DNA of 51,033 bases from Streptosporangiaceae bacterium (GCA_035483035.1 DATHQE010000268.1:1-51033); one strand, 5' to 3'. Shown: positions 1,892-45,057, counted from the first letter of the stretch. A program made the numbers and translations. The notes: a model not told the origin generated them from the sequence alone.

Positions 1892-1905
1892 AGCAAGCGC
1901 TTGCT
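1892..1905. promoter_or_regulatory. KstR2-type operator box 1: AGCAAGCGCTTGCT (perfect 14-bp palindrome)
   Basis: Lies in the 101-nt divergent region between the SDR start (1846) and the TIM-barrel gene start (1948). Abuts a TACATT -10-like hexamer (1905-1910). Fits AnCAAGnnCTTGnT. Confidence 0.75.
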
Positions 1906-1947
1906 ACATTAGGCAGGATACCCATGTTCCTACTAGCAGGAGTGGCG

Positions 1948-2748
1948 ATGCACCCGCGGCTGTCCGTCAATACGCTGGGTTTCGGACCAGGTCCGATCAG
2001 GACACGACTGGACCTGCTAGCGGCGCAGGGCATCACGCGCCTCGGCGTTCCCCTCGATCAGCTCACCGACGGGGATCTGCACGCCAACCTTGCAGCGGTG
2101 CGCTCGGGCGGCTTCGAGATCGTGACCAGCGTCATCCCGTATGCCTTCACCCTGACACAGCCGGGCTGCTGGCCGGCGGAGCGGGACAGGCTGCGTGCCG
2201 GTCTGGACGTCGCCGCCGAGGCCGGCTGCCGGGTGCTGTACACCACGACCGGGCCGGCCGGAGATCTGACCTGGCAGCAGGCGGCGGCGCGGTTCATTGA
2301 CGCGGTGGCTCCGGTGGCAAGTTACGCACAGACCCTGCCGGTCAGGTTCGCCTTTGAGAACACTGCCACGATGCGAGTGGACCTCGGATTCGTGCACGTG
2401 CTTGCCGACGCTGTCGACCTGGCCCGTGAGGCCGGACTGGCCGTGTGCGCGGATCTGTTTGTGGCCTGGACGGACCGGCACTTGCAGGAAACGATCGCCC
2501 GCTCGGCCGCAGACTTCGCGATGGTGCAAATCGCCGACTTCGTTGTGGGTACCCGGATGACGTCGGATCGGGCCGTACCCGGCGACGGCAGCGTACCGAT
2601 CGGCCGGCAGCTGGCCTGGTTGCAGGAGGCTGGCTATCCGGGTCTAGTGGAGCTCGAACTGCTCGGCCCCCGGATAACAGCCGAGGGTCCGGCACAGGCG
2701 GCGGCGCGGGCGCTGACCACCATCACGCCGTTGCTCGTGCGCGCGTAA
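1948..2748 (+). CDS. Sugar-phosphate isomerase/epimerase-like TIM-barrel protein (xylose isomerase-like fold)
   Basis: ORF 1867-2748. ATG 1948 is preferred because AGGAG (1937-1941) precedes it and the longer ORF would include operator box 1. The pattern RLSVNTLGF...FAFEN...VELELLG resembles AP_endonuc_2/IolE-type proteins. Confidence 0.75.
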   Translation: MHPRLSVNTLGFGPGPIRTRLDLLAAQGITRLGVPLDQLTDGDLHANLAAVRSGGFEIVTSVIPYAFTLTQPGCWPAERDRLRAGLDVAAEAGCRVLYTTTGPAGDLTWQQAAARFIDAVAPVASYAQTLPVRFAFENTATMRVDLGFVHVLADAVDLAREAGLAVCADLFVAWTDRHLQETIARSAADFAMVQIADFVVGTRMTSDRAVPGDGSVPIGRQLAWLQEAGYPGLVELELLGPRITAEGPAQAAARALTTITPLLVRA

Positions 2749-2788
2749 CCGCTTGGTCCGGTGCCGCAAGCGGCACCGGACCAAGCGG
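2749..2788. terminator. Bidirectional terminator-like hairpin between convergent genes
   Basis: Perfect 19-nt inverted repeat CCGCTTGGTCCGGTGCCGC / GCGGCACCGGACCAAGCGG separated by AA. It sits exactly between TAA 2746-2748 (+ gene) and the stop at 2796-2798 (- gene). There is no U tract. Confidence 0.7.
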
Positions 2789-2795
2789 CTCAGAC

Positions 2796-4010
2796 TCAGG
2801 ACGAGCCGGGTGCGCCGAACTGACCGTCGATGACCTTGGACGGCTGCACGAAGGCAAATGCCGTTGGGTCGATATTGGCCGCGTGCGAGGTCGCGCTGAA
2901 GTGGTAGGCCGGGAAGATCGCGGTCTGGTAACTACCAGCCGGCAGTGACTGCACGGCGTGAGCGATCTTGGCACCGTCGGTCGTCGTATCCGCCGCCTTA
3001 GCGCCGGCCGCGGCAAGAATGACCGCGTCGTAGGCGTAGGCGAGGATGAGCGGCGCGGGTATCGGGCCTAGGGCCTTCATCCCCTTGATCATGTCGGTCA
3101 CCGCCGCGGGCGCGTGGGCCGAGTACACCGTGCTCGCAAAGACCAGTGCCTTGGCGTCGCTCTCCAGCGCAGTGCCCAGCATTCCGGTTGGCGGTGGCGA
3201 GGTGATCACCGGCGAGACCATGAAAGCGTCGTCGCCGAGCAGCGGAACCTTCCACTGCAGACGGTTCAGATCGTTGAGGACGTACCCCGACGGCGCCCCG
3301 TACGAGGAGACCACGAGGACGTCGGGATGCCCTGCTTTCAGCGCCGACAGCTGCGGCGTCAGGTCGAGCGCGGTGAGCTCGAACTGCTGGTCGCCCGTCA
3401 TTTTGAGCCCCTGAGCCTGGCACTGCGAGGCGATCGCGGCCGCCTCCGGGTCGGCGAAAGCGTCGTCACCGTGGAGGATCGCGAACGTCTTGTACCCCTT
3501 GGCCTTGATCGCCGGGCAGAACGCTGCGGCGTAGTTCGGGGTCGACGGCGACAGGTCGAAGTTGTAAGGCGAGACCTTCGGATCGCTCGAGGTGGCCGTC
3601 GGGGCCTGGTTGAACGAGACAATCTTGTTCTGGGTCAGGATCGGCAGTTCTGCCTCGGCCTCGGGCGAGGCGTCTGCCTGGATGAAGACGGCGGGCTTAT
3701 CGCTGCTAGCGAGCGCGCCCTGCAGCTTGGTGACGGCGGTCGTCGGGTCACCGGCGTCGTCTTCCACGGTGAGCTGGACCGGGTGGCCGAGCACGCCTCC
3801 TGCCTTGTTGACGACGGCCAGGGCGGCCTTGGCCGCGTTGACCGCAGTCTGGGCGTTGGGGCCTAGTACCGAAGAGCTGATGGGCGCGACGAGCAGGATC
3901 CGCAGCGGCTGCGCCGCGGTCGAACTCGAGTTGCCGCTCGAACTACCGCATCCGGATGCGGTGGCTCCGAGAGCGGCCACCGCCATCAATGCGACCAAAG
4001 ACTTTCTCAC
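2796..4010 (-). CDS. ABC transporter substrate-binding lipoprotein, LivJ/LivK (type I periplasmic binding protein) family
   Basis: ORF 2796-4052. GTG 4010 is preferred because GAGGAG lies on the minus strand at 4018-4023. The N-terminus VRKSLVALMAVAALGATASGC is a signal peptide plus lipobox. The remainder resembles branched-chain amino acid/amide binding proteins. Confidence 0.9.
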   Translation of the reverse strand: MRKSLVALMAVAALGATASGCGSSSGNSSSTAAQPLRILLVAPISSSVLGPNAQTAVNAAKAALAVVNKAGGVLGHPVQLTVEDDAGDPTTAVTKLQGALASSDKPAVFIQADASPEAEAELPILTQNKIVSFNQAPTATSSDPKVSPYNFDLSPSTPNYAAAFCPAIKAKGYKTFAILHGDDAFADPEAAAIASQCQAQGLKMTGDQQFELTALDLTPQLSALKAGHPDVLVVSSYGAPSGYVLNDLNRLQWKVPLLGDDAFMVSPVITSPPPTGMLGTALESDAKALVFASTVYSAHAPAAVTDMIKGMKALGPIPAPLILAYAYDAVILAAAGAKAADTTTDGAKIAHAVQSLPAGSYQTAIFPAYHFSATSHAANIDPTAFAFVQPSKVIDGQFGAPGSS

Positions 4011-4035
4011 TCGGAGTCTCCTCAAAGGGTTGTCT

Positions 4036-4049
4036 ACCAAACGCTTGCT
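4036..4049. promoter_or_regulatory. KstR2-type operator box 2: ACCAAACGCTTGCT (one mismatch)
   Basis: About 26 nt upstream of the binding-protein start (4010, minus strand). On the minus strand it is followed by a TAGACA hexamer. Confidence 0.6.
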
Positions 4050-4257
4050 CAAGGCATGCTAGAGACCAAGCTCGGAGTCCGTCCAGGTATCTCGTCAGTC
4101 AGGTTGGATCAGCCGAAAAATTGTTTCCTCACCGTTATCAACTGACTGTGATCAGGCGTGCCGCCAGGCGGTGGGTGGAGTACGCCCAGTTCGGCGCGCG
4201 GCCGTGCGGCCGACCTCGCCTGCGATGTTGCAGCAAGTCGTTGGGCCAGAAGACGTG

Positions 4258-4271
4258 ACCAAGCGCTTGAT
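4258..4271. promoter_or_regulatory. KstR2-type operator box 3: ACCAAGCGCTTGAT
   Basis: Perfect CAAGCGCTTG core, 128 nt upstream of the permease start at 4399. A weaker relative, AGCAAGTCGTTGGG, sits at 4232-4245. Confidence 0.75.
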
Positions 4272-4398
4272 TATGTCCTAAAGTCGGTGCGGGCTCGAAG
4301 TTCACGTGGGAACCCTGGCGGGACGTTCGTCCTGGTTGACAAGCTATGACCGACTTATCGCTACAGTCGGAATTCCAGCGGAAAGGACGTAACGCCCG

Positions 4399-5256
4399 AT
4401 GGATGCAGTCTGGTCTGGCCTTGCGCTTGGCGCGGTCTACGCGCTGGTAGCGCTCGGCTACCACATTGTGTTCGTGTCGTCGAACGCCTTCAACTTCGCG
4501 CACGCGCAGCTGATCATGCTGGGCACCTTCATCGTCTACTGGGGGTCGGTCACCCTCAAGCTGCCGATTGGTCTGGTCTTCCTGCTGGCAGCGGCGATTG
4601 TGGGCGGCGTCGCGGTCCTCGAGGAACGCACCGCGATCCGCATCGTGCGCGGCACGGAAGGCCAGCTGGTCACAACGCTGGGATTCGCGACGCTGCTGAA
4701 CGGTGCCACCCAGGTCATCTGGGGAGGTAGCCCATTGCAGGTGCCGTTCTTCGGCTCCTCCAACGTGCTGGTCGTGCTGGGTGGCCACGTATTCCCGGAC
4801 GATCTGATCCTCATGGGCGTGGCCGTCGTCCTCACGATCGGTTTCGTGCTCGTCAGTCGGATGACTGTGCTGGGAATCGCCCTGCTCGCTGTCTCCGAGG
4901 ACCGCGAAGCCGCGCTGATGCGCGGCATCAACGTGCGCGCGCTCGGGATCGGCGCGTTCGCGGTGTCCGGGATCGTGGCCGGCCTCCTCGGGCCGCTCAT
5001 CGGACCGAAGACGTTCGCCGTGGCCACCCTCGGATCCGATCTTGCGCTCAAAGGCTTCGTCGCCATGGCGATCGGCGGCTTCGGCAGCGCACCCGGCGCA
5101 CTGATCGGCGGTTTCGCCGTCGGTCTTATCGAGTCAGAGGCGGGTCGTTACCTAGGCGCGTCCTACTCGAATCTGATGATCTTCGCTGTGCTGCTAGGCG
5201 TGCTACTCCTGCGGCCTACGGGCCTGTTCGGGCATGCCCGCGAACGGATGGTGTGA
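4399..5256 (+). CDS. ABC transporter permease, LivH type
   Basis: 285-aa hydrophobic ORF. MDAVWSGLALGAVYALVALGYHIVF...NFAHAQLIMLG is the typical LivH N-terminus. Confidence 0.9.
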   Translation: MDAVWSGLALGAVYALVALGYHIVFVSSNAFNFAHAQLIMLGTFIVYWGSVTLKLPIGLVFLLAAAIVGGVAVLEERTAIRIVRGTEGQLVTTLGFATLLNGATQVIWGGSPLQVPFFGSSNVLVVLGGHVFPDDLILMGVAVVLTIGFVLVSRMTVLGIALLAVSEDREAALMRGINVRALGIGAFAVSGIVAGLLGPLIGPKTFAVATLGSDLALKGFVAMAIGGFGSAPGALIGGFAVGLIESEAGRYLGASYSNLMIFAVLLGVLLLRPTGLFGHARERMV

Positions 5257-5260
5257 GGCC

Positions 5261-7084
5261 ATGGACGTGCTCTCGGTCGCGCGACGCATTCCGACGTGGC
5301 TGCTGCCGCTCATCGCGGCCGTCATCGTGATCGCCTTCCCCTACCTCGGGGCCCAGTCCCCGGTGCAGCGGCAGGTGATCCTCATCTGCAGCCTGGCCTT
5401 GCTTGTCAGCGGCCTTAACCTCAGCCTCGGATACGCCGGCGAACTCGCACTCGGGCAAGCCGCGATCTACGCCTGCGGCGCGTACATGACCGGCTACCTT
5501 GGCTCCCACGGGTACACGGACATTGTGCTGCAACTGGCGTGTGCCATCGCAGCCGCGCTGGTGATCGGACTTGTGACCGGCATCCCCGGCCTGCGACTGG
5601 GCGGCTGGGCCCTGGCCATGGTGTCGTTCTTCCTGGTCCTGCTCGTGCCTGACATCCTGCAGCTTTTCGCCAACCAGACCGGCGGGGCGCAGGGCCTCAC
5701 CGGTATCGCGTCCCCCAGCCTGCTCGGGAAGACCCTCACCCCGAACGGCTTTTACGTGTTCGCCACGACAGTGACGGCGCTCTGGCTGCTAGTGCTGCGG
5801 AACCTGGTCACCTCACGGCACGGGACGGCGTTCCGGGTGCTGCGTGAGAATCCGGTGCTGGCATCATCGGTCGGCATCTCGGTGTTCCGCATGAAACTGA
5901 GCGCGTACGCGATCGGCGCCGTGCCCGCTGGCATCGCCGGCTGCATCTTCGCCAACCTTGACCAGTACCTGTCGCCCGACTCGTTCGGCTTCGCCTTGGC
6001 GGTGTCCATACTGGCCGCGTCCGTTCTGGGCGGGTCGGCCAGCATCTACGGCGCCGTGGTCGGTGCTGTCATCCTGACGCTGGGCCCGCTGGAATCGACG
6101 TCGTTCCAGCAGTATTCGCTGGTGGTCTACGGATTGCTGCTGCTGGTGGGCGGCATCGTGCTCTCCATCGGCATCGCGGGCGTGCTGCAGCGGGTCTGGG
6201 CTAGGGTGCAGCGGCGCTGGCTTCCGCCCGCGCGGTCGGCCCCCTACGAGGGTGATTTGCTGCCTCGGACTGCAGGGACTGCGCTGTCGGTTGATCATCT
6301 GGTGAAGTCCTTCGGCGGTGTGAACGCCTTGCAAGACGTCTCGCTGGTCGCCCAGCCTGGCCAGGTAACCGCCCTCATCGGCCCGAATGGCTCCGGCAAG
6401 ACGACGCTGCTCAACTTGATCTGCGGCTACTACCGCATCGACGGCGGCACCATCAGCGTCGGCAAGGAACAGACCACGCACCGGCCGTACCGGATAGCCC
6501 GGTCGGGCGTGGCGCGAACATTCCAGACGCCGTCGATCCCGCGGGAGATCACCGTGGCCGAGGCGGTGCGGGCTGGCCGGTACGCCACACAGCGTGCCGG
6601 CTTCGTGCCCGCCGTGCTCCGGCTGCCGTCCTACCGTCGCGCGCGGGCTAGTGATGTGGAGGAGGCCAGACGCGTCCTGGCCCTGGTCGGGCTCGCCGAC
6701 CAGGAGAACGAGATCGCCGCGTCGATGCCGCTCGGAACGCGCCGTTTGCTGGAGGTCGCCCGGTGCGTCATTGCGCGTCCCAAGGTGCTGCTGCTTGACG
6801 AGCCCGCGTCCGGCCTCGATGAGAATGAGGTGGAGCGGCTGGCCGGCCTCATCCGCAAGATCAGCGACAGCGGCGGCACGGTGGTGCTCGTCGAGCACAA
6901 CTTCCGGCTCGTGCTGTCGGTGGCGGACCAGATCTATGTCCTGGCTCGAGGCCAGATCATCGCGGAGGGCCCGCCGTCCGTGATCGAGGTTCACCCCGAG
7001 GTGCTGACGGAGTATCTAGGCGTCAGGGTCCCGGAAGCGGACGACTTGCTGCGCACCCCCTCGGAGGTGGCTGACAATGACTGA
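5261..7084 (+). CDS. Fused LivM-type permease and LivG-type ATPase
   Basis: ORF 5234-7084, with ATG 5261 preferred. The N-terminal ~330 aa is multi-TM and LivM-like (LNLSLGYAGELALGQAA). The C-terminal part has Walker A GPNGSGKTT, a signature-like MPLGTRRLLEVAR and Walker B LLLDEPASG, all in one frame without a stop. Confidence 0.85.
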   Translation: MDVLSVARRIPTWLLPLIAAVIVIAFPYLGAQSPVQRQVILICSLALLVSGLNLSLGYAGELALGQAAIYACGAYMTGYLGSHGYTDIVLQLACAIAAALVIGLVTGIPGLRLGGWALAMVSFFLVLLVPDILQLFANQTGGAQGLTGIASPSLLGKTLTPNGFYVFATTVTALWLLVLRNLVTSRHGTAFRVLRENPVLASSVGISVFRMKLSAYAIGAVPAGIAGCIFANLDQYLSPDSFGFALAVSILAASVLGGSASIYGAVVGAVILTLGPLESTSFQQYSLVVYGLLLLVGGIVLSIGIAGVLQRVWARVQRRWLPPARSAPYEGDLLPRTAGTALSVDHLVKSFGGVNALQDVSLVAQPGQVTALIGPNGSGKTTLLNLICGYYRIDGGTISVGKEQTTHRPYRIARSGVARTFQTPSIPREITVAEAVRAGRYATQRAGFVPAVLRLPSYRRARASDVEEARRVLALVGLADQENEIAASMPLGTRRLLEVARCVIARPKVLLLDEPASGLDENEVERLAGLIRKISDSGGTVVLVEHNFRLVLSVADQIYVLARGQIIAEGPPSVIEVHPEVLTEYLGVRVPEADDLLRTPSEVADND

Positions 7085-7889
7085 GCCCCAGAACGGTCCG
7101 GCCTCGCCGGACGTCACGCAGCCACCGGCTGCGACGGGGCCGGCCGCATCGCCCGGTGCGCCGCTGCTGAGCGTCAATGAGCTGGCAACCGGCTACGGTG
7201 ACCTGCGCGTCGTCTGGGACGTCTCGTTCGAGGTGCGTCCCGGACAGGTCACGGCCCTGCTAGGGCGCAACGGCGCTGGCAAGACCACCACACTGCGGGC
7301 GATCGCGGGACTCAATCGGGTCCAGGGCGGATCAGTGCTGCTGGAGGGCCGCGACATCGCCGGCCTGCCGCCGCACAAGCGCATCCGGGCTGGCCTGGGC
7401 TTCGTGCAGGAGAACAAGAGAGTGTTCAAGCGCCGCACTGTGGAAGCGAACCTGATGCTGGGCGGGTACACCCGGAGCATCGGGCGCAAGGGACTGATGA
7501 AGGCGGTCGACGAAATCTACGAGCTCTTCCCGGTCCTGCGCGGGCGTGCGACCACCACGGCAGGGCAGTTGTCCGGCGGGCAGCAGCAAATGCTGGCGAT
7601 CGGCCAGGCGTTGATGGGCAAGCCAAAGCTGCTGATGCTCGACGAGCCTTCCTCGGGCCTGGCGCCCTCCATCGTGAGCGAGGTGATGGGGAGCGTGGCG
7701 GCCCTCAAGTCAGCCGGGCTGGGGATCCTGCTCGTGGAGCAGGCCGTCGAGGCAGCCGTCCGCGTCGCCGACCAGATCGCTGTCCTCGACGTGGGGCGGA
7801 TAGTCATGTCCGGCGCAGCGAGCGAGATATCCGACCTGGAGATCATCCAGGACGCTTACTTCGGCCGCGTTCGAGAGCGCCCGCAGTGA
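7077..7889 (+). CDS. ABC transporter ATPase, LivF type, with Pro/Ala-rich N-terminal extension
   Basis: Walker A GRNGAGKTT, signature LSGGQQQM, Walker B LLMLDEPSSG. The start overlaps the upstream stop (ATGACTGA). Confidence 0.9.
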   Translation: MTEPQNGPASPDVTQPPAATGPAASPGAPLLSVNELATGYGDLRVVWDVSFEVRPGQVTALLGRNGAGKTTTLRAIAGLNRVQGGSVLLEGRDIAGLPPHKRIRAGLGFVQENKRVFKRRTVEANLMLGGYTRSIGRKGLMKAVDEIYELFPVLRGRATTTAGQLSGGQQQMLAIGQALMGKPKLLMLDEPSSGLAPSIVSEVMGSVAALKSAGLGILLVEQAVEAAVRVADQIAVLDVGRIVMSGAASEISDLEIIQDAYFGRVRERPQ

Positions 7890-7929
7890 GGATGGACGAC
7901 TCCGCGTCAGGTACGGCAGCGGAGCGGTT

Positions 7930-9081
7930 GTGACCGGGCCGCTGGAGTCGGTGAACGTGCTCGACCTCGGCACTCTCGGGCCCGGCGCGCGGGCCGTCAG
8001 AATCCTGTCGGACCTGGGCGCCGCAGTGGTCCGGATCGGCGCTTTGTCGGGCGCCTGGCAGCTCCCCTTCTACGCCTACGGCGGCATGCGCGGGGTCCGG
8101 CGCTGCCAGGTCGACCTGCGCAGCGAGGCTGGCCGCGCCGTGGCGCTCGACCTGGCCGCCGTGGCTGACGTGGTGGTGGAGGGGTTCCGTCCCGGCGTCG
8201 CGGACCGGCTAGGCGTCGGATACGAGGCGGTGCGCGCCGTGAGCCCGTCGGTGGTCTATTGCTCTGCCACCGGATTCGGGCAAGCTGGCCCGCGAGCGGG
8301 GTGGGCCGGCCACGACCTGAACTACCTGGCCTTGTCCGGGTTCCTCGCCGTCGGCCAGCCGCTCGAAGACAGCCGGCCCGCGCTGCCCGGCGCCACGATT
8401 GCGGACGCCGCCGGCGGCGGCATGTCTGCCGCACTGGCCATCGTTGCTGCCCTGGTCCGGCGTGCTCGCACGGATTCCGGTGCCTACCTGGATGTGGCTG
8501 CAACTGACGGGATGCTGGGCGTCATGGCGATGCATCTGGAGAACCACCTCGCGACCGGCGCGGACGTCACCTATGGCGCCGACGTCATCACCGGCGCCTA
8601 CGCTTGCTACGGCATCTACGAGTGCGCCGACGGGCGGTTCCTGTCGGTTGCCGCCGTGGAGCCAAAGTTCTTCGCCAACCTGTGCCACGCCCTCGGGCTG
8701 GCGGAGCTCATCCCGCTCCAGTATGCGGACGACGAGCAGGAGCGGGTTCGGATCGCGCTTGACGCTGCTTTCGCCGGCCGCGACCGCGACGACTGGGTCG
8801 ACAGCCTGAGCGGCCGGGAGACCTGCGTCGCCCCGGTGCTCACGGTCGCCGAGGTCGTGACGGACGAGGGCTTCCGCGAGCGAGGCGCCTTCGTGCTGGC
8901 CGAAGACCCGGTCCGCGGCCAGTTCCGGCAGCTAGGGCCGGTGATCGCTGGTGCGCGGCGACCCGCGGAACCGGTCCTGCTGCCCGGGCAGGACGTGTCC
9001 GACACAGACGAGGTGCTGGCCGGTGTTGGCTACTCCAGCGACGACATCGACCGGCTGCGGCGGGAGCGGGTCGTCAGGTGA
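7930..9081 (+). CDS. Family III CoA-transferase (CaiB/BaiF/alpha-methylacyl-CoA racemase family)
   Basis: GTG start preceded by GGAGCGG. N-terminal VNVLDLGTLGPGARAVRILSDLGAAVVRI and internal VVEGFRPGVADRLGVGYEAV are typical of the family. Confidence 0.9.
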   Translation: MTGPLESVNVLDLGTLGPGARAVRILSDLGAAVVRIGALSGAWQLPFYAYGGMRGVRRCQVDLRSEAGRAVALDLAAVADVVVEGFRPGVADRLGVGYEAVRAVSPSVVYCSATGFGQAGPRAGWAGHDLNYLALSGFLAVGQPLEDSRPALPGATIADAAGGGMSAALAIVAALVRRARTDSGAYLDVAATDGMLGVMAMHLENHLATGADVTYGADVITGAYACYGIYECADGRFLSVAAVEPKFFANLCHALGLAELIPLQYADDEQERVRIALDAAFAGRDRDDWVDSLSGRETCVAPVLTVAEVVTDEGFRERGAFVLAEDPVRGQFRQLGPVIAGARRPAEPVLLPGQDVSDTDEVLAGVGYSSDDIDRLRRERVVR

Positions 9082-9135
9082 GTCTCGTCTGGTGCGGGCC
9101 GGACCCCCGGATCGCCGACAGCATCGGAGGTTGCC

Positions 9136-13207: not shown

Positions 13208-13242
13208 GGCACTCCTCGTAGCAAGTCCGACAGGATGCAGGC

Positions 13243-16194: not shown

Positions 16195-16225
16195 GCGTGG
16201 GACCTTAACGCAGCCCGGTCCGCGA

Positions 16226-34022: not shown

Positions 34023-34070
34023 ACGAGAGCGATGCAGTGAACGAGAGCGACAGGGTGAACGAGAAGGTGT
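34017..34070 (+). repeat. 18-nt tandem repeat x3 spanning a stop/start junction (CAGTGAACGAGAGCGAnn)
   Basis: The units are cagtgaacgagagcgatg, cagtgaacgagagcgaca and gggtgaacgagaaggtgt. Each carries an in-frame GTG, and they encode VNESDA-VNESDR-VNEKVY. Confidence 0.85.
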
Positions 34071-34881: not shown

Positions 34882-34889
34882 GACCTTTG

Positions 34890-34903
34890 ATCAAGCGCTT
34901 GCT
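34890..34903. promoter_or_regulatory. KstR2-type operator box 9: ATCAAGCGCTTGCT
   Basis: Perfect core. It overlaps a TACCAT -10-like hexamer (34903-34908), 46 nt upstream of the ipdA-like start. Confidence 0.8.
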
Positions 34904-34948
34904 ACCATACGACGGGGCTCGCGGTCGTGACAGGAGATAGCAGGCGCA

Positions 34949-37412: not shown

Positions 37413-37419
37413 CGGAGGA

Positions 37420-38285: not shown

Positions 38286-38300
38286 TCACGAGCACGGTGC

Positions 38301-38360
38301 CAGCGCGGAACGCCCGACAGCGGAACGCCCGGCAGCTGGACGCCCGGCAGCGGGACGAGA
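38301..38360 (+). repeat. About four copies of a 15-nt tandem repeat (CAGCGGAACGCCCGG-like) filling an intergenic spacer
   Basis: The units are cagcgcggaacgcccga, cagcggaacgcccgg, cagctggacgcccgg and cagcgggacgaga, between the MaoC stop (38285) and the SDR start (38362). Confidence 0.85.
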
Positions 38361-38361
38361 A

Positions 38362-39237
38362 GTGAGCACGCCAGCCACCGGCCGTGTGGTCATCGTGACC
38401 GGCGCTGGGCAAGGCCTGGGCCGCGAGCACGCGCTCGCCTTCGGTCGCGACAGCGCTCGGGTTGTCGTGAACGACGTCAGCGCGGCGGCCGTGGACGTAG
38501 CGGGCGCCATAGTGGAGGCCGGCGGCACTGCGGTCGCGAGCGTGGGTGATTGCAGCGACTGGGACTATGCGCAGCAGCTGGTGCGTACTGCGGTCGAGGC
38601 CTATGGCGGTCTGGACATCCTGGTCAACAACGCTGGCATCAACCGCGATCGAATGCTGGTCGGGATGTCTGAGGCGGAGTGGGATACGGTTATTCGCGTT
38701 GATCTGAAGGGGCACTTCGCGCCGATGAGGCACGCCGCAGCGTACTGGCGCGAGCGCAGCAAAGCCGGCGACACGCTGCACGCGCGAATTGTCAACACCA
38801 GCTCAGGCGCCGGACTGATGGGCAGCGTCGGCCAGGGCAACTACGCGGCAGCGAAGGCTGGTATCGCCGCGCTGACGCAGGTTGCTGCTGTCGAGTTTGG
38901 CCGGTACGGGGTTACCGTCAACGCGATTGCTCCCTCGGCCCGCACGGCCATGACCGAGGCGGTGTTCGCCGAGCAGATGCGCGCGCCCGAGTCCGGATTC
39001 GACGTGATGCACCCGGCCAACGTCTCGCCGCTGGTGGTGTGGCTGGCCAGCGTCGATGCGGGGGACGTCACCGGCCGCATCTTCGAGATCGAGGGCGGTC
39101 GACTGAGCGTCGCAGACGGCTGGCAGCACGGCGAGCCGGTGGTGAAGCAAGCCCGCTGGCGATCCGGTGAGCTGGGTCCGCAGGTCCGCGCCCTGCTGGC
39201 GGCGGCTCCGCCACCGGCCCCGGTCTACGGAGCCTGA
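38362..39237 (+). CDS. SDR resembling the dehydrogenase domain of MFE-2/Hsd4A-type (R)-3-hydroxyacyl-CoA dehydrogenases
   Basis: ORF 38161-39237. GTG 38362 is the only start after the upstream stop. VTGAGQGLGREHALAF, NNAGINRDRML, NYAAAKAGIAALT and the C-terminal extension are typical of this subgroup. Confidence 0.8.
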   Translation: MSTPATGRVVIVTGAGQGLGREHALAFGRDSARVVVNDVSAAAVDVAGAIVEAGGTAVASVGDCSDWDYAQQLVRTAVEAYGGLDILVNNAGINRDRMLVGMSEAEWDTVIRVDLKGHFAPMRHAAAYWRERSKAGDTLHARIVNTSSGAGLMGSVGQGNYAAAKAGIAALTQVAAVEFGRYGVTVNAIAPSARTAMTEAVFAEQMRAPESGFDVMHPANVSPLVVWLASVDAGDVTGRIFEIEGGRLSVADGWQHGEPVVKQARWRSGELGPQVRALLAAAPPPAPVYGA

Positions 39238-39239
39238 CG

Positions 39240-40451
39240 ATGCATGCCCCGGACGAGCAGGCCCCGGCCAAGCAGGCCGCGGACAAGCAAGCCCCGGACG
39301 AGCAGGCCTTTCGGGCTGAGGTGCGCGACTGGCTTTCCGCGAACCTGTCCGGCGAGTTCGCCCCGCTGGTCGGCAGCGGCGGTCCAGGTCGGGAGCACGA
39401 GTTCATCGAGCAGCGGATGGCGTGGGAACGGCGACTGGGCGCGGATGGCTGGATCGGCATCGGCTGGCCGGTAAGCGCTGGCGGTCGCGGGCTGCCATGG
39501 AGCCATCAGGTCATCTTCTATGAGGAATACGCCCGCGCCGGGGCGCCGGCCAGAGTCGGTCACATGGGGGAGCAGTTGCTCGGCCCGACGCTGCTGATGT
39601 TCGGCACTGCCGAGCAACGCGGCAGGTTCCTGCCCGGAATCCTCGCCGGGACGCAGCTGTGGTGCCAGGGCTATTCCGAGCCTGGCGCCGGCTCCGACTT
39701 GGCTGCGGTCGCCACCAGGGCCCGGCTCGATGGCGGCGAGTGGCATGTCGACGGGCAGAAGGTGTGGACATCGCTCGCGCAGTTTGCGGACTGGTGTTTC
39801 GTGCTGGCGCGGACCGAGCCGGCGGCGCAGCGTCATCGCGGCCTGTCCTACCTGCTCGTGCCGATGCGCCAGCCCGGCATCGAGGTCCGCCCGATTGTGC
39901 AGCTGACCGGCACAGCCGAGTTCAACGAGGTGTTCTTCGACGACGCCCGAGCCGCGGCCGGAGATGTCGTCGGCGTGCCCGGTGATGGCTGGCGGGTGGC
40001 GATGGGGACGCTGGCCGTCGAGCGGGGCGTATCAACGTTCGGGCAGCAGCTGGGCTTTCAGCGCGAGTTCGACGCGGTCCTCGTGACCGCGAGGTCCACC
40101 GGCGCGCTGGAGGATCCGGACATCGCGGCGCGGATCGCCGAGGCGTGGGTCGGCCTGCAGGTCATGCGGTACACGGCACTGGCCGCGCTCGACCGGCCAG
40201 CTGCGGACGTGCCGGGCGCGGAGGTGAGCATTAACAAGCTCATCTGGGGGACCTGGCATCAGCGGCTCGGCGAGCTCGCCGTCGACGTGGCCGGAGCCGC
40301 GGCGACCGTTGTCGGCGCTGGCTATGACCTCGACAACGCGCAGCGGCTGTTCCTGTACACGAAGGCCGACACCATCTATGGCGGATCCGCCGAGATCCAG
40401 CGGAATGTGATCGCCGAGCGGCTCCTTGGCCTGCCGCGGGAGGCGCGCTGA
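39240..40451 (+). CDS. Acyl-CoA dehydrogenase (FadE-type), first of an adjacent pair, with N-terminal pentapeptide repeats
   Basis: FRAEVRDWLSANL, WCQGYSEPGAGSDLAA and YGGSAEIQRNVIAERLLGLP are ACAD hallmarks. Confidence 0.9.
   Translation: MHAPDEQAPAKQAADKQAPDEQAFRAEVRDWLSANLSGEFAPLVGSGGPGREHEFIEQRMAWERRLGADGWIGIGWPVSAGGRGLPWSHQVIFYEEYARAGAPARVGHMGEQLLGPTLLMFGTAEQRGRFLPGILAGTQLWCQGYSEPGAGSDLAAVATRARLDGGEWHVDGQKVWTSLAQFADWCFVLARTEPAAQRHRGLSYLLVPMRQPGIEVRPIVQLTGTAEFNEVFFDDARAAAGDVVGVPGDGWRVAMGTLAVERGVSTFGQQLGFQREFDAVLVTARSTGALEDPDIAARIAEAWVGLQVMRYTALAALDRPAADVPGAEVSINKLIWGTWHQRLGELAVDVAGAAATVVGAGYDLDNAQRLFLYTKADTIYGGSAEIQRNVIAERLLGLPREAR
39249..39308 (+). repeat. 15-nt tandem repeat x4 (CCGGACGAGCAGGCC-like) at codons 4-23 of the ACAD gene
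   Basis: The units are ccggacgagcaggcc, ccggccaagcaggcc, gcggacaagcaagcc and ccggacgagcaggcc, encoding PDEQA-PAKQA-ADKQA-PDEQA. Confidence 0.9.
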
Positions 40452-41500
40452 TGGAGTTCGCCGACACGCCCGAGCAGGCCCTGCTGCGCGACACGGTGCG
40501 GGCGTTCGCCGCCCGGCACGGCACGCCGGAGCAGGTCCGGGCGACGATGACCGGGCCCACGGGGTGCGACCATCACACCTGGGAACGGCTGGCGCGTGAG
40601 CTCGGTCTCACCGCCCTCGCGGTGCCCGAACGCTACGGTGGCGCAGGCGCCGGACCCGCCGAGGTCGCGATCGCAGTCGAGGAGCTAGGCCGGGTGCTGC
40701 TGCCGTCACCGTACCTGTCCACGGCGGTCGTGGCGCTCGCCCTGTCCGATCAGGCCGACCCGGCGTTCGCCGAGCGCTACCTGCCGGGTCTCGCTGACGG
40801 CTCGCTCATCGGGGCACTCGCCCTGGACGCCGACGTCGTCTCGGCCGGCGGCACGATTAGCGGCGTAGCCCGTCACGTGGTCGATGGCGGGCTCGCGGGC
40901 CTGCTGCTAGTTCGCGCTGGCGACCAGCTGATGGCCGTGTCCGCCGCGGACACCGCCATCGAGCAGCTGAACACGCTGGACCAGACGCGTCGCCAGGCGC
41001 TCGTACGCTTCGACCAGACTCCCGCACTGCTGGCTGGACCCGCGGCTCCGGTGATCGCGATGCAGCGGGTGCTGCTTGCCGCCGAGTGCGCCGCGGCGGC
41101 CCGGCACTGCCTCGAGGTGACGGTCGAGTACCTGAAGACCCGGCGCCAGTTCGGTCGGCCGATCGGCTCGTTCCAGGCACTCAAGCACCGCGCGGCGGAC
41201 CTCGCGGTGGCGGTCGAGTCTGCACACGCAACCGCGCGGGCGGCGGTCTGGACAGCGGCCACCGACCCGGCCGGGCTGGCCACGCTGGCACCGCTCGCGG
41301 CCCTGCACTGCTCGCGCACCTTTGTCCAGGTGGCCGCGGAGATGATTCAGCTGCACGGCGGGATCGGCTTCACCTGGGAACACGAAACTCACCTGTACCT
41401 CAAGCGCGCCAAGTCCACTCAGCTGCTGCTCGGACCCGTCAGCGGGTTGCGGACGGAGATCGCCGGGCAGGCAGATCTACTTCCGGGCCGACGGGGCTAA
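40451..41500 (+). CDS. Acyl-CoA dehydrogenase-fold protein, second of the pair (probable partner subunit)
   Basis: 1-nt overlap (TGATG). RRQFGRPIGSFQALKHRAADL and QLHGGIGFTWEHETHLYLKRA are typical. It is shorter than the first gene, as in heterotetrameric steroid-type ACAD pairs. Confidence 0.85.
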   Translation: MEFADTPEQALLRDTVRAFAARHGTPEQVRATMTGPTGCDHHTWERLARELGLTALAVPERYGGAGAGPAEVAIAVEELGRVLLPSPYLSTAVVALALSDQADPAFAERYLPGLADGSLIGALALDADVVSAGGTISGVARHVVDGGLAGLLLVRAGDQLMAVSAADTAIEQLNTLDQTRRQALVRFDQTPALLAGPAAPVIAMQRVLLAAECAAAARHCLEVTVEYLKTRRQFGRPIGSFQALKHRAADLAVAVESAHATARAAVWTAATDPAGLATLAPLAALHCSRTFVQVAAEMIQLHGGIGFTWEHETHLYLKRAKSTQLLLGPVSGLRTEIAGQADLLPGRRG

Positions 41501-41504
41501 TCCG

Positions 41505-42122
41505 ATGGGCGGCTGCTACAGCATCGACGGCGTCGTTCCGGTCGTTCACCCGACAGCATTTGTCCACCCGGACGCGGTGCTGATCGGCGACGTGCGGATC
41601 GGGCCAGGGTGCTACATCGGGCCGCTGGCCTCGCTGCGCGGTGACCTCGGCACGATCAGCATTGGCGCGGGCGCCAACATCCAGGACTCGTGCGTCCTGC
41701 ACTGCTTCCCCGGCCGTGAGCTTGTCGTCGAGGACGACGGCCACATCGGACATGCGGTGGTCCTGCACGGCTGCCGGGTCGGCCGGGGCGCGCTCGTCGG
41801 CATCAACGCCGTACTCATGGACGGGGCGGTCGTCGGGACGAGGTCGTTCATCGGCGCGTGCAGCTTCGTTCCCGCAGACATGGCGATACCCGACGGCTGG
41901 CTGGCCGTCGGCTCGCCCGCCCGGATCGTACGCGCTCTGACTGAGCAGGAGATGTCGTGGAAGGCCAACGGAACCGCGGTGTATCAGGAGCTCGCGGCGC
42001 GCTCAGCCGCGACGCTGAGCGCCGTCACCCCGCTGACCGAGCTCGACGCCGGCCGGCCCGCCCTCGCGGTAGACGCAGCCCGCGCCGTGCCGCTTCGGCA
42101 GTACCGCCAGCAGCGGGGCTGA
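41505..42122 (+). CDS. Left-handed beta-helix hexapeptide-repeat protein, gamma-carbonic anhydrase/PaaY/CaiE family
   Basis: IDGVVPVVHPTAFVHPDAVLIGDVRIGPGCYIGPLASLRGD...IGAGANIQDSCVLH is the classic pattern of this family. Confidence 0.85.
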   Translation: MGGCYSIDGVVPVVHPTAFVHPDAVLIGDVRIGPGCYIGPLASLRGDLGTISIGAGANIQDSCVLHCFPGRELVVEDDGHIGHAVVLHGCRVGRGALVGINAVLMDGAVVGTRSFIGACSFVPADMAIPDGWLAVGSPARIVRALTEQEMSWKANGTAVYQELAARSAATLSAVTPLTELDAGRPALAVDAARAVPLRQYRQQRG

Positions 42123-42151: not shown

Positions 42152-42649
42152 TCACACGCGATAGAGCGGGTCATCGCGGTCGCGAGTGCCACTCGGCCCC
42201 GTTCCCTCTTTCGGCAGGTACCGTCCGGCATCGGATCGAGTCCACTCACGCACAGCCCAGCGCTCGGCGATCGCCCACCGGCCATCGCGGTGCTCCATCC
42301 GGTCGATGTAGCGGAAACCGCTGGTGAAGTTGCGACGCGGGTCGTCTGCTGGCTCGCCCCAGTGCACGGCGGTGCCGTAGGTCTCAGCCCGCGCCCAGTC
42401 GCCGTCGACCTCGGCATAGTGGTTACCGACGATGTGCATGGTCCCGGCGAACCGCGACAGCGCGGCCCGCACCCACGGCACGTATTCCTCTACTGTCCCG
42501 TCGAAGCCGGTGTGGTGGTCTAGCGCGCCCGGGTGATAGCAGGCGCGGACTAGATCCAGGTCGAGGCGGTCCACGCCGCGGCAGTAGCGCAGTACGACGT
42601 CGTGGATCTCCTGCCTGGCCAGCAGGCCCGCCACCGGCTCGGTCGTCAC
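42152..42649 (-). CDS. NTF2-fold / SnoaL_4-like protein
   Basis: ORF 42152-42793. GTG 42649 is in a GTGA overlap with the upstream SDR stop. LLARQEIHDVVLRYCRGVDRLDLDLVRACYHPGA and DRMEHRDGRWAIAERW are typical. Confidence 0.75.
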   Translation of the reverse strand: MTTEPVAGLLARQEIHDVVLRYCRGVDRLDLDLVRACYHPGALDHHTGFDGTVEEYVPWVRAALSRFAGTMHIVGNHYAEVDGDWARAETYGTAVHWGEPADDPRRNFTSGFRYIDRMEHRDGRWAIAERWAVREWTRSDAGRYLPKEGTGPSGTRDRDDPLYRV

Positions 42650-43455
42650 GGTGCCGTGCCACCATTCGGCCCACCCGGGTCGGTGGTGGCCTGCTGGGAG
42701 GCGATGAATCTCGCCGGGATCTCGCCCCCACCGTGCACTGCCAGGTCGGCCCCAGTGATGTAAGCCGCGAGCGGGGAGGCGAGGAAGAGGCATGCCGATG
42801 CGACGTCAGCGGGCTCAGCCATCCGGCCCATGGGTATCGTCGCGGCGACCGCCGCGCCGCCATCAGGGCCGTAGTGCGACGCCGCACTGTCCGTCAGGAT
42901 CAGGCCCACGGTGATGTGATTGATGCGAACCTTCGGCGCCCACTCCAGCGCAAGCGAGCGAGTCAGCTGCACGAGGCCGGCCTTGGCCGCCGAGTACGCG
43001 GCACTAAGCGGCGCAGCCTGGTGTGCGGACACGCTGCCGATGTTGATGATCGCACCGCCGCTGTCCTGTTGCTGCATAACAGCGTTGGCAGGCTGGGACA
43101 CGTAGAACGGCGCCAGCAGATTCAGGGCCACGACTCGCTCCGCGAACCGCGGAGACATGGTGGCCGCGTCGGCGTTGGGGGAGCCGCCAGCATTGTTGAC
43201 CAGCACGTCCAGTCGCCCGAACTGGTCGACCGCGGCTGTGATCACGGCCCGCGCCTGCTCGGGGTCGCGGACGTCCGCCGCGATGAACACGGCCTCGTGC
43301 TCGCTGCTGGCCGGCAGCCGCTCGGGCTCGGTTCGCCCGCAGACGAGCACGCCGGCTCCAGCAGTCAGGAACGCCTCAGCGATCGTTCGGCCGATGCCGC
43401 GCGTGCCGCCAGTGACGATGACCGAGCGGCCGGTGAAGTCGACGGGGTTATCCAT
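42646..43455 (-). CDS. Classical SDR
   Basis: TGGTRGIGRTI, NNAGGSP and YSAAKAGLVQLTR. Confidence 0.9.
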   Translation of the reverse strand: MDNPVDFTGRSVIVTGGTRGIGRTIAEAFLTAGAGVLVCGRTEPERLPASSEHEAVFIAADVRDPEQARAVITAAVDQFGRLDVLVNNAGGSPNADAATMSPRFAERVVALNLLAPFYVSQPANAVMQQQDSGGAIINIGSVSAHQAAPLSAAYSAAKAGLVQLTRSLALEWAPKVRINHITVGLILTDSAASHYGPDGGAAVAATIPMGRMAEPADVASACLFLASPLAAYITGADLAVHGGGEIPARFIASQQATTDPGGPNGGTAP

Positions 43456-43498: not shown

Positions 43499-44167
43499 TC
43501 AGGCTTTCCGCGCCTTGGCGGAGCCTACGCTGACAGACCCGTTGGATTTCCTTGACACCTGCGCCGGTACGCCGCCGTCGTTCTTCCTCGCCGCGAACCC
43601 GTTCAGGAAGATCGAAGTGATGTCTTCGGCCAGCTGCGCCGTCGTGTAGGGCCCCTCGGGCCGGTGCCAGCGGATCGACAGCCAGACCGCGTCGCGCAGA
43701 AGCCGGTAAAACACGCGGGGCGGGATGTCGTCCCGGAAGCTGCCGTCGGCCACGCCGGCCTCGATCACTTGCAGCCAGGTCTGCTGCACGTCGGCCACAG
43801 CGACCTGGACGTGCTCGAAGCCAGGCATGTCCCGCATGAACTGGCCCTCGTTCTGGTAGATCGCCTGAGCGTGCGGTTGCTCCTCGGCCACCTGGAGCGA
43901 CGTGACCACCAGGTCGTGCAGGCTCTCCGCGGGACTCTTCCCCTCCGCCAGCACCGACGCGTAGCACGACCTGATGGAGTCCAGGTAGCGAGTCAGCAGC
44001 TCATCGATGATGGTGTCCTTTGAGGGAAAATAGTGATAAAGGCTGCCCGAGAAAACGCCGACCGCCTCGGCGATCTGCCGCACGGTGGTGGCTCGCAGCC
44101 CCCGCCGCGCGAACAACTCGGCTGCGGTAGAGAGGATCAGCTCGCGCTTGTCCTGAACCTCAGTCAT
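43499..44167 (-). CDS. kstR2: TetR-family regulator, KstR2-like (acyl-CoA-responsive FadR/KstR2 subgroup)
   Basis: RRGLRATTVRQIAEAVGVFSGSLYHYFPSKDTIIDELL, HAQAIYQNEGQ and FYRLLRDAVWLSIRWHRPEGP track my recollection of Rv3557c. The symbol is tentative, and orthology versus paralogy is unresolved. Confidence 0.8.
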   Translation of the reverse strand: MTEVQDKRELILSTAAELFARRGLRATTVRQIAEAVGVFSGSLYHYFPSKDTIIDELLTRYLDSIRSCYASVLAEGKSPAESLHDLVVTSLQVAEEQPHAQAIYQNEGQFMRDMPGFEHVQVAVADVQQTWLQVIEAGVADGSFRDDIPPRVFYRLLRDAVWLSIRWHRPEGPYTTAQLAEDITSIFLNGFAARKNDGGVPAQVSRKSNGSVSVGSAKARKA

Positions 44168-44234
44168 CAGGTGGCCTCCATCACCGTCGCGGTCGGCTCG
44201 CGACGCGACTATCGCATTATCTTATCGTGCAGTG

Positions 44235-44248
44235 ATCTAACGCTTGCT
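44235..44248. promoter_or_regulatory. KstR2-type operator box 10: ATCTAACGCTTGCT (degenerate left half)
   Basis: About 70 nt upstream of the kstR2-like start (44167, minus strand). The right half CGCTTGCT is intact. Confidence 0.5.
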
Positions 44249-44262
44249 CTATCAGTCCGGGT

Positions 44263-45030
44263 TCAGACGCCATAACCGCCGTCCACGTCCAGTTTCTGAC
44301 CACTGATGAATGAGGCGCGATCGGAGGCGAGGAAGCAGACAGCCTCTGCGATATCCGCCGCAGTTCCGAACCGGCGCATCGGGATGCTGGAGCGGGCCAC
44401 GTCCAGGGCGCGCTCGTCCAGGTCGCCGGCGGCGATAAGCCGCTCGGCCATCCCATCGGTCAGCATGCCGGGACCGACGCAGTTGGCGCGCACGCCAAAC
44501 CGGCCCTCCTCCGCCGCGATTCCGCGCACCGCCGCCTCAACGGCCGCCTTCGGTATCGATGACAGGCCGTCCCGCACTGGGAATCGCGTGGTGGCAGCGG
44601 TAGTGACGGCTACGAGGTTGCCCTGGCTGGAGCGAAGCAGCGGCAAGGTCGGTAGCACGGCATTGAGGAATGCGACTGCATCCTCTTCCAGCTGCTGACG
44701 GAAGCTCGCCTGCGGCACCTTGCTGATGTGGATCATGGGGACGTGCGGTCCAGAGGCGTAGACGACAGTGTGCAGCGCGCCGAAATCCGCGGCGGCAGCA
44801 GCGACTACGTCCGAGCACGCGGCCGCGTCGGTGAGCTCCAGCTGGTAGGCCACCGCCCGGTCGGGCTGGCGTGCCGTCAGCTCGGCCACGACGGAAGACG
44901 TGCGCCGATAGGTCATCGCGACCCGGCTGCCGCGGTCGAGAAGCATCGCGGCGATGGCGGCGCCCAGCCCGCCGCTGGCACCGAACACCAAGGCTGCGCC
45001 AGAGCGAGCGCCGAAATCGTGTTCGTTCAT
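44263..45030 (-). CDS. SDR-fold protein with atypical active site
   Basis: FGASGGLGAAIA glycine motif. At the expected YxxxK the sequence reads GLSSIPKAAVEA (Ser at the Tyr position by manual alignment). Confidence 0.8.
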   Translation of the reverse strand: MNEHDFGARSGAALVFGASGGLGAAIAAMLLDRGSRVAMTYRRTSSVVAELTARQPDRAVAYQLELTDAAACSDVVAAAAADFGALHTVVYASGPHVPMIHISKVPQASFRQQLEEDAVAFLNAVLPTLPLLRSSQGNLVAVTTAATTRFPVRDGLSSIPKAAVEAAVRGIAAEEGRFGVRANCVGPGMLTDGMAERLIAAGDLDERALDVARSSIPMRRFGTAADIAEAVCFLASDRASFISGQKLDVDGGYGV

Positions 45031-45043
45031 GGGTCGCTAGCCT

Positions 45044-45057
45044 ACCAAGCGCTTGCT
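45044..45057. promoter_or_regulatory. KstR2-type operator box 11: ACCAAGCGCTTGCT
   Basis: Perfect core, 14 nt upstream of the SDR ATG (45030, minus strand). It overlaps a TAGGCT -10-like hexamer (minus strand, 45039-45044). Confidence 0.8.

Follow-up and report, generated by a model that had tools for sequence, protein, structure and literature searches.

Ten KstR2-type boxes in a Streptosporangiaceae contig: a probable single, enlarged regulon for the uptake and breakdown of steroid fragments

The canonical KstR2 regulon of Mycobacterium tuberculosis, M. smegmatis and Rhodococcus jostii RHA1 consists of three operators and 15 genes (Kendall 2010, PMC3068626; Crowe 2017, PMC5380842), and its 14-bp operator consensus, AnCAAGnnCTTGnT, is bound by purified KstR2 in the electrophoretic mobility shift assay (EMSA; PMC3068626). 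In Nocardioides simplex VKM Ac-2033D, a KstR2 regulon has been predicted at 29 operons, and cluster C of that organism (KR76_25015-25200) holds about 38 genes (PMC7593942, PMC7807495). R. equi carries ipdA2B2 (REQ_00850/00860), located outside the cholesterol cluster and unlinked to echA20 (van der Geize 2011, PMC3161971), the primary role of which was stated not to be catabolism of androstenedione (AD) or of 5OH-HIP, a hydroxylated form of methylhexahydroindanedione propionate (HIP) (PMC3161971); a literature search found no later treatment of these genes. Finally, papers citing Swain 2012 (PMC8399759, PMC6678751, PMC6498646) describe CamABCD (ro04888-ro04885) of R. jostii RHA1 as an importer of excreted perhydroindane-type cholate metabolites. 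Here, we analyse a 51,033-nt contig of a Streptosporangiaceae bacterium (GCA_035483035.1, DATHQE010000268.1:1-51033), the whole of which is called the window. It contains ten copies of a KstR2-type palindrome ("boxes") in promoter regions and encodes a KstR2-family TetR repressor at 43499-44167. We consider it likely that the ten palindromes are operators of this repressor and form one large regulon for steroid-fragment uptake and breakdown. Very probably, the boxes define one regulon that is larger than the canonical one.

The exact 10-mer CAAGCGCTTG occurs six times in the window, with cores at 1894, 4260, 14164, 30586, 34892 and 45046, where 0.04 copies would be expected, and none of 100 shuffles yielded six. 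Three more cores with one mismatch (4038, 16228 and 19665) bring the number of copies with at most one mismatch to nine, compared to 2.15 expected. Genes were called from third-codon-position GC content (GC3) together with Pfam matches, giving 50 genes and leaving 6.2% of the window as intergenic DNA. All six exact and all three one-mismatch copies are intergenic (P ≈ 1.4e-11 for nine out of nine). This bias is not general to degenerate copies, since only three of the 30 copies with two mismatches (920, 2746 and 44237) fall between genes. When the window was scanned with a symmetrised, 18-nt position weight matrix (PWM) derived from its boxes, the ten boxes scored 17.7-26.1 bits and the next-best position, within a coding sequence (CDS), scored 12.2 bits. 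There were ten sites at ≥17 bits, against 0.01 in 100 dinucleotide shuffles, and each box stayed at rank 11 or better when left out of the matrix. The likeness between boxes is limited to about 16-18 nt and their flanks are unrelated, which shows that they are not copies of a larger repeat; the idea of a dispersed repeat was rejected on these grounds. A half-site at 24669 gets no PWM score and was also rejected.

These numbers agree with an initial annotation of the window, in which the six exact cores were placed at the same positions and four further boxes at 4036, 16226, 19663 and 44235, these being the starts of the 14-mers, 2 nt before the core. That annotation had described all copies as intergenic, had put the expectation for a 10-mer well under one in 51 kb, had found no full copy within a CDS and had discarded the half-site at 24669. 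Each of these points was borne out by the counts above, and all ten sites at ≥17 bits proved to be intergenic. The boxes are as follows:

1890-1907: box 1, CAAGCAAGCGCTTGCTAC, exact core, 25.3 bits; between the divergent SDR1 and TIM-barrel genes
4034-4051: box 2, core CAAACGCTTG, 24.0 bits; 27 nt upstream of the importer binding-protein gene
4256-4273: box 3, exact core, 25.6 bits; 129 nt upstream of the LivH-a permease operon
14160-14177: box 4, CTACCAAGCGCTTGCTAG, 26.1 bits; between the divergent PF04909 amidohydrolase genes AH2-2 and AH2-3
16224-16241: box 5, core CAATCGCTTG, 22.6 bits; between the divergent ECH-2 gene and the family III CoA-transferase gene CoAT3-3
19661-19678: box 6, core CGAGCGCTTG, 19.7 bits; upstream of SDR2
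30582-30599: box 7, exact core, 19.9 bits; between SDR4-HydA-HydB (minus strand) and the ADP-forming acyl-CoA synthetase operon (plus strand)
34888-34905: box 8, exact core, 24.4 bits; 47 nt upstream of ipdA
44233-44250: box 9, TGATCTAACGCTTGCTCT, 17.7 bits; a likely autoregulatory site, 69 nt ahead of the regulator gene
45042-45059: box 10, exact core, 26.1 bits; 15 nt upstream of the SDR8 ATG

The boxes keep a fixed register with putative promoter elements. At five promoters, a TAnnnT hexamer starts exactly 2 nt past the core: toward the TIM-barrel gene (TACATT), toward AH2-3 and AH2-2 (TAGATT and TAGACT, one on each side of box 4), toward ipdA (TACCAT) and toward SDR8 (TAGGCT). At two others, those of SDR1 and SDR2, the core is directly adjacent to TTGACA. 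Box 5 is centred within a 76-nt intergenic region, and box 7 lies 18 nt before the ATG at 30614. With the SDR8 start codon only 15 nt from the core, the SDR8 transcript is probably leaderless. As judged from the sequence, this layout fits the needs of a repressor that would occlude core promoter elements. Boxes are found in nine of the 13 sizeable promoter-bearing intergenic regions of the window. The four that lack one are the region between the IclR gene and the luciferase-like monooxygenase gene LLM-1, the region between AH2-4 and a second TetR gene (TetR2), and two regions around a second Liv-type transport system; an inverted-repeat search of three of the four returned a different palindrome in each. 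From gene direction and spacing, 14 transcription units comprising 35 genes are potentially governed by boxes.

The regulator gene and its neighbours are arranged as follows:

43499-44167, minus strand: KstR2-family TetR repressor, 222 amino acids (Pfam TetR_N, 1e-17, and TetR_C_24, 7.7e-15)
42152-43455, minus strand: SDR7 and SnoaL-1, downstream of the regulator gene; SDR7 matches PRK07856 above cut-off
44263-45030, minus strand: SDR8, with 74% identity to the gene that precedes the regulator in locus L085

The best PDB matches to the regulator are both of the KstR2 structures, 2IBD (1.3e-45) and 4W97 (M. tuberculosis KstR2, 4e-44), followed by the next TetR protein at 1.5e-19, and its DNA-binding helix is nearly identical to that of M. 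tuberculosis KstR2. Arg162 and Trp166 of the M. tuberculosis protein reportedly contact HIP-CoA, a finding ascribed to work by Crowe in 2015. Both positions are present in the window regulator, in which YRLLRDAVW aligns with YRFIRDTTW (residues 158-166) of M. tuberculosis KstR2 (motif positions from PMC13176608). The YRxxRDxxW segment is kept in every paralogue compared as well, and so does not discriminate the effector. Nine of the boxes deviate from the consensus AnCAAGnnCTTGnT by at most one core position, and the box at 44237 by two. The initial annotation had recognised a KstR2-like TetR at 43499-44167, boxes fitting the KstR2 consensus and a small canonical regulon; all three views are upheld, by the two PDB structures and by the operator sequence and regulon size published in PMC3068626.

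Related regulators (loci from other genomes are numbered with the prefix L) were collected by a genome scan with peptide patterns derived from the window protein (YHYFPSKD and others), which retrieved KstR2-like paralogue loci only and no canonical kstR2 loci. The closest relatives (73-83% identical) adjoin ipdABC and fadD3-, fadA6- and echA-like genes. The window PWM finds strong sites directly upstream of KstR2-like genes in loci from Nocardia, Rhodococcus, Prescottella, Acidimicrobiia and Microbacterium. In one locus (L177), three perfect-core boxes lie within ±10 kb of the regulator, about the operator count of the M. tuberculosis regulon. In L085, from a Streptosporangiaceae metagenome-assembled genome (MAG), counterparts of SDR8 and SDR7 (74-82% identical) flank the regulator. 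We also observed KstR2-like TetR genes beside orthologues of AH2-3 in two loci (L096, 395-976, and L098, 1560-1967), encoding proteins 41-47% identical to the window regulator; in L096, a CAAGCGCTTG core lies between the two genes. This arrangement suggests paralogous regulators that share one operator type.

Box 8 precedes an operon of HIP-pathway homologues, and box 1 lies within a divergent gene pair:

34949-42122, plus strand: operon of ipdA, ipdB, SDR5, MaoC-N, MaoC-C, SDR6, ACAD alpha, ACAD beta and a hexapeptide protein (PDB, Pfam and family-model matches)
1094-2748: SDR1 (minus strand) and a TIM-barrel AP_endonuc_2 gene (plus strand, start at about 1948) (Pfam)

In PDB searches with the products of ipdA and ipdB (COCHEA-CoA hydrolase), IpdA matched the RHA1 (6CO6, 2.7e-104) and M. 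tuberculosis (6CON, 3e-98) enzymes, as did IpdB (3.9e-86 and 1.4e-85, respectively), with the next family at 1e-19. SDR5 and SDR6 correspond to PRK07831 and PRK07791, both above cut-off, and are Rv3548c/Rv3549c-like; the MaoC pair makes up a heteromeric MaoC hydratase. The large acyl-CoA dehydrogenase subunit (ACAD-a) has Tcur3483 (IpdE1; 6WY9, 8e-53) as its best match, and the small subunit (ACAD-b) scores 258 bits against the IpdE2 model, below the cut-off of 450. A FadD3-like AMP ligase, cut by the left edge of the window, is 55-59% identical to copies in L011, L015 and L085. Homologues of the TIM-barrel protein (34-35%) head ipdAB-type operons in L001, L006 and L007, and an SDR1 homologue (52-55%) follows ipdB in L175 and L176. 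In the Nocardia locus L006, a TIM-ipdA-ipdB-...-SDR-SDR-MaoC-MaoC operon lies behind two boxes, divergent from a KstR2-like gene, a layout which shows that the TIM-barrel gene (box at 1894) and the whole ipdA operon are usual targets. The same holds for SDR8 and for the regulator gene.

The initial annotation had held that no boxed gene has a canonical HIP-pathway function. This has to be abandoned: the box at 34892 fronts ipdA and ipdB, the Rv3548c/Rv3549c-like SDRs, MaoC and IpdE-like ACAD genes. Two of its supposedly unrelated genes also find a place in such systems, since the TIM-barrel gene heads an ipdAB-type operon in Nocardia and Liv-type importers occur in KstR2-type clusters elsewhere and are steroid-induced in N. 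simplex.

The window IpdA is 70-76% identical to copies encoded beside KstR2-like genes in Prescottella (including P. equi), Nocardia, Rhodococcus, Microbacterium and metagenomic relatives. It is 61-63% identical to RHA1 and M. tuberculosis IpdA, which are themselves 77% identical to each other, and the copies beside KstR2-like genes are only 58-63% identical to these two. The identities thus split the proteins into two groups and place the window system with the ipdA2B2-type paralogues; it most likely belongs to this functionally orphan set.

Boxes 2 and 3 lie between the binding-protein gene and the LivH operon of a transport system:

2796-4010, minus strand: LivK-a, substrate-binding protein of a Liv/HAAT-type ABC importer (Pfam Peripla_BP_6), CamA-like by analogy
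4399-12040, plus strand: operon of LivH, a LivM/LivG fusion, LivF, two family III CoA-transferases, a PF04199 cyclase and an enoyl-CoA hydratase

The four importer genes (LivK-a, LivH-a, LivM/G fusion and LivF-a) adjoin KstR2-like and ipdAB genes in L011, L019, L175, L176 and L179. In Acidimicrobiia MAGs, all four (42-66% identical) lie behind a box beside KstR2-like genes, and in L011 and L019 the importer has one box. Boxed counterparts of the binding protein are 42-44% identical in Acidimicrobiia, L175 and L176 and 62% in L179, and the importer genes of the plus-strand operon share 58-66% identity with their counterparts in L011, L019, L175 and L176. A homologue of the binding protein in Pseudonocardia pini is 57% identical, and others occur in Jatrophihabitans and Amycolatopsis taiwanensis. 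The LivK|LivH gap holds two boxes in the window, L175, L176 and L179. PDB searches with the binding protein gave remote HAAT relatives only (1e-13), from which no ligand can be deduced. By analogy, the importer may work like CamABCD. In all box-associated importers seen (window, L011, L019, L175, L176 and L179), the LivM permease and LivG ATPase form a single polypeptide of about 600-616 amino acids (5234-7084, plus strand, in the window), and this fusion could serve as a marker of the importer subtype. A second Liv-type ABC system of five genes, with separate LivM and LivG, occupies the right end of the window (46063-50894, plus strand). It is 31-39% identical to the box-controlled importers of the relatives, and its 369-nt upstream region contains no box (best PWM score 8.0 bits, at 46005). 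By sequence, this system appears to lie outside the regulon.

Links between boxes and genes recur in relatives for the importer, the AH2 pair and ipdA/regulator, at 44-76% protein identity; comparative support does not extend to the boxes at 16228, 19665 and 30586. Orthologues of AH2-3 at 75-76% identity have a strong box 53-54 bp upstream in L095 and L096; in L097 (63% identical), the box lies ahead of the preceding SDR6-like gene. In L175 and L176, a box lies between the divergent AH2 pair, the members of which are 74-76% (AH2-2) and 61% (AH2-3) identical to those of the window. Background density is close to zero: about 524 kb of mostly AH2-1-type loci contained seven sites at ≥14 bits, four of which are upstream of AH2-3 or AH2-1 orthologues. 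In L175 (55% GC) and L176 (64% GC), the AH2 pair, ECH-CoAT3, a MaoC pair, SnoaL-SDR-ipdB-ipdA, a TetR_C_24 gene and the importer are found within about 16 kb, with boxes in the AH2|AH2-3, ipdA|TetR and LivK|LivH gaps. A stretch of about 17 kb in L179 (73% GC) contains eight boxes, all of them between genes. A box precedes ipdA in L177, L179, L175, L176 and L006, the regulator gene in L177, L179, L006 and L091, and the SDR8 homologue in L085. The boxes, their placement, the family membership of the regulator and enzymes, and several conserved box-gene links are direct observations.

We propose a mechanism in which binding, effector, substrate and operon boundaries are all predicted. A dimer of the repressor would bind each 14-18-bp box (consensus A-N-CAAGCGCTTG-N-T with TA-rich outer flanks), which overlaps or abuts the predicted -10 or -35 element of the promoter, and would thereby keep RNA polymerase off as many as 14 transcription units, or about 35 genes out of 50, and off the repressor's own promoter. 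By analogy with M. tuberculosis KstR2, release would be brought about by the CoA thioester of a perhydroindanone-type (HIP-like) acid. The genes so derepressed would provide for uptake of the HIP-like acid by the four-gene, CamABCD-like Liv/HAAT-type importer, its activation with CoA, β-oxidation of the side chain by the heteromeric ACAD, the heteromeric MaoC hydratase and SDRs, and hydrolytic ring opening by the IpdAB-type enzyme and crotonases. Four PF04909 enzymes, four family III CoA-transferases, a hydantoinase A/B pair and an ADP-forming ligase would be controlled along with them as accessory modules for which no role has been described.

Several observations weigh against this interpretation. 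The regulator is only 38% identical to M. tuberculosis KstR2 and 42% to RHA1 KstR2 (MAFFT alignment), where KstR2 orthologues have been accepted at >50% identity (Kendall 2010, PMC3068626), and it is roughly equidistant (40-49%) from several KstR2-like paralogue groups. Based on these identities and this equidistance, we file it as a KstR2-family protein and not as the Rv3557c orthologue. The KstR2 family includes paralogues with a shared operator type, and another paralogue in the genome could bind some of the boxes; the additional KstR2-like genes adjoining AH2-3 in L096 and L098 are a case in point. Box 9, at 44237, is the weakest of the ten and drops to 12.3 bits when left out, so that its location ahead of the regulator gene is the main argument for it. 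ECH-CoAT3 in L175 has no box, and the three boxes named above lack comparative support. The edge-cut FadD3-like ligase has no visible promoter. Among the 50 window proteins there is no ipdC (NMO) or fadA6 (thiolase) domain and no clear echA20, as neither of the two crotonases in the window reaches an equivalog; ipdC, fadA6 and echA20 may be located elsewhere in the genome, outside the window. A word-indexed search for the importer binding protein gave 66 homologues at ≥39% identity, none of which came from RHA1 or N. simplex.

The main alternative is that the boxes are divided among at least two KstR2-family paralogues with one operator type, the window holding parts of overlapping regulons; the ipdAB core and the PF04909/CoA-transferase module, for example, might answer to different effectors. 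Besides the paralogues (41-47%) with the same CAAGCGCTTG core in L096 and L098, this would be in keeping with the presence of two TetR_C_24 genes each in L021 and L085, and of at least two KstR2-like loci besides canonical kstR2 in Prescottella genomes. However, the 51-kb window has a single TetR_C_24 gene, L175 and L176 group the AH2 pair, ipdAB and importer around one such gene, and the box cores are identical across modules, and we therefore consider divided control unlikely. Much less likely still is that the boxes belong to one of the other two regulators encoded within the box-rich region, the TetR_C_38-type TetR2 (24685-25404), which also has a counterpart in the box-rich locus L179, or the IclR protein (17456-18334). 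The promoter regions of these two genes lack a full box and contain other palindromes (TCTGAC...GTCAGA, twice, at 24553-24593 and a GTATAC-centred palindrome at 18410-18441), the box motif matches the experimentally defined KstR2 operator (PMC3068626), and boxed loci without either regulator are common (e.g., L006, L011, L175 and L177). Least credible of all is a non-regulatory origin of the palindromes, as REP-like elements, terminator hairpins or a restriction-related bias. Like REP elements, the boxes are short, GC-rich and exclusively intergenic, but their flanks are unrelated, they lie upstream of gene starts and are absent from the convergent TIM|LivK-a gap, and Rfam has no match in the window. 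Moreover, their register with the -10 and -35 hexamers is fixed and their positions are kept in organisms of 55-73% GC with otherwise diverged intergenic DNA. The placement, register and cross-species conservation of the boxes lead us to exclude such an origin for practical purposes.

The remaining boxed modules are as follows:

12050-15370: AH2-1 and AH2-2 (minus strand) and AH2-3 (plus strand), PF04909 amidohydrolases (Pfam)
15379-17503: ECH-2 (minus strand) and CoAT3-3 (plus strand) (Pfam, NCBIfam; no equivalog reached)
19741-20553, plus strand: SDR2 (Pfam)
25401-30481, minus strand: SDR4, hydantoinase A and hydantoinase B; caprolactamase/acetophenone-carboxylase-like, sub-threshold
30614-34789, plus strand: ADP-forming acyl-CoA synthetase, CoAT3-4 and a 256-amino-acid protein without Pfam match

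NCBIfam gave no match for the four PF04909 proteins, the cyclase or the TIM-barrel protein and no equivalog for the binding proteins; the four family III CoA-transferases, the hydantoinase A/B pair and the ADP-forming ligase scored below its cut-offs only. The 256-amino-acid protein (34019-34789, plus strand), last in the ligase-CoA-transferase operon, has no NCBIfam match either, and is found in all same-strain contigs (L081 and L082). Two adjacent 18-nt inverted-repeat arms, TCTGATGCTCCGTCAGAA and TTCTGACAGTCCGTCAGA, were seen at 24553-24593, between AH2-4 and TetR2 and upstream of the TetR_C_38 gene, which is present in the related locus L179 as well. This repeat is probably the operator of the TetR_C_38 regulator itself, controlling the box-free AH2-4-LLM-2-SDR3-MaoC-1 operon. 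In that operon, LLM-2 (22354-23334, minus strand) scores above the cut-off of the F420-dependent family TIGR03619 (Rv2161c; 216 vs. 167 bits), which suggests that this operon carries out redox reactions with F420 and agrees with an origin in actinobacteria. In the IclR|LLM-1 gap (18410-18441), the GTATAC-centred palindrome GTCCTTCTGTTTAGTATACGAAACGGATGCAC is a candidate IclR operator. The window has three SnoaL_4 genes (614-1063, 42152-42649 and 45214-45693), the first of which (plus strand, 149 amino acids) was missed by a simple GC3 gene call. In L177 and L178, two SnoaL_4 genes and a PF04199 cyclase gene are found within the ipdABC operon; these are not close homologues of the window copies.

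If the boxes are indeed operators of the repressor at 43499-44167, the window supplies candidates for the part of bacterial steroid degradation about which least is known, and these come from soil actinobacteria that have not been cultured, not from pathogens. It would also connect the functionally orphan ipdA2B2-type paralogues with both an importer and conserved PF04909 enzymes. Many soil bacteria may then feed on ring fragments shed by other steroid degraders. A more speculative suggestion, which we hold to be doubtful, is that the organism is a scavenger of excreted steroid C/D-ring (perhydroindanone) acids, taken up by a KstR2-gated importer, with a lower-pathway branch that replaces IpdC, EchA20 and FadA6 by undescribed enzymology under one acyl-CoA-sensing repressor. 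It is offered just as tentatively that the replacing enzymes would be PF04909 hydrolases/decarboxylases, family III CoA-transferases, the ATP-dependent hydantoinase/carboxylase-like pair and the ADP-forming CoA ligase, with the conserved, boxed divergent PF04909 pair as a new core enzyme. For a search for the effector, the ten near-identical operators would offer a ready reporter and EMSA system.

The initial annotation spoke of an expanded or repurposed regulon for an uncharacterised substrate. This stands insofar as the window set is larger than the canonical one, is ipdA2B2-type and includes modules without a described role; it has to be qualified in that large KstR2 regulons (29 operons) had already been predicted. 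Since multi-operon KstR2 regulons and steroid-fragment importers of the CamABCD type are already known, the current understanding is not overturned. The previously undescribed elements are the link of an ipdA2B2-type set to an importer, the conserved boxed PF04909 pair, and the recruitment of family III CoA-transferases, the hydantoinase-like pair and the ADP-forming ligase behind boxes.

Compared to the R. equi ipdA2B2 set, which is small and has no reported importer, the window set includes one. The window IpdA shares 74% identity with the P. equi copy (L009 and L028), itself 60-63% identical to RHA1 and M. tuberculosis IpdA; judged by these identity values rather than by locus tags, the P. 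equi copy is presumably REQ_00850. The window importer has the same parts list as CamABCD (binding protein, permease, permease-ATPase fusion and ATPase), and both are four-gene HAAT/Liv-type ABC systems tied to lower steroid catabolism. N. simplex cluster C, by its published description, resembles the window in being multi-operon, with predicted KstR2 sites, a second ipdAB, kstR2|fadD3 and induction by steroids, and it likewise contains an IclR regulator, a luciferase-type monooxygenase, a hexapeptide/gamma-CA-like protein, SDRs, ECHs and a four-gene Liv-type importer. Phytosterol raises the expression of the ipdAB, liv and CamA genes of cluster C 10-59-fold, with 10-15-fold for livF/G/H and 59-fold for the CamA-annotated binding protein, which has several predicted KstR2 sites (PMC7593942, PMC7807495). 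In contrast to the window, cluster C has no entries for PF04909, family III CoA-transferase or hydantoinase genes in the supplementary table. The canonical KstR2 regulon and the window share a TetR_N + TetR_C_24 repressor, operators in divergent promoter regions, an autoregulatory site, ipdAB, Rv3548c/Rv3549c-type SDRs, heteromeric ACADs and a FadD3-like ligase nearby. The window differs in the absence of ipdC, fadA6 and a clear echA20, in its boxed ABC importer, PF04909, family III CoA-transferase, hydantoinase-like and ADP-forming ligase genes, and in its size, with ten operators and about 35 genes as against three and 15.

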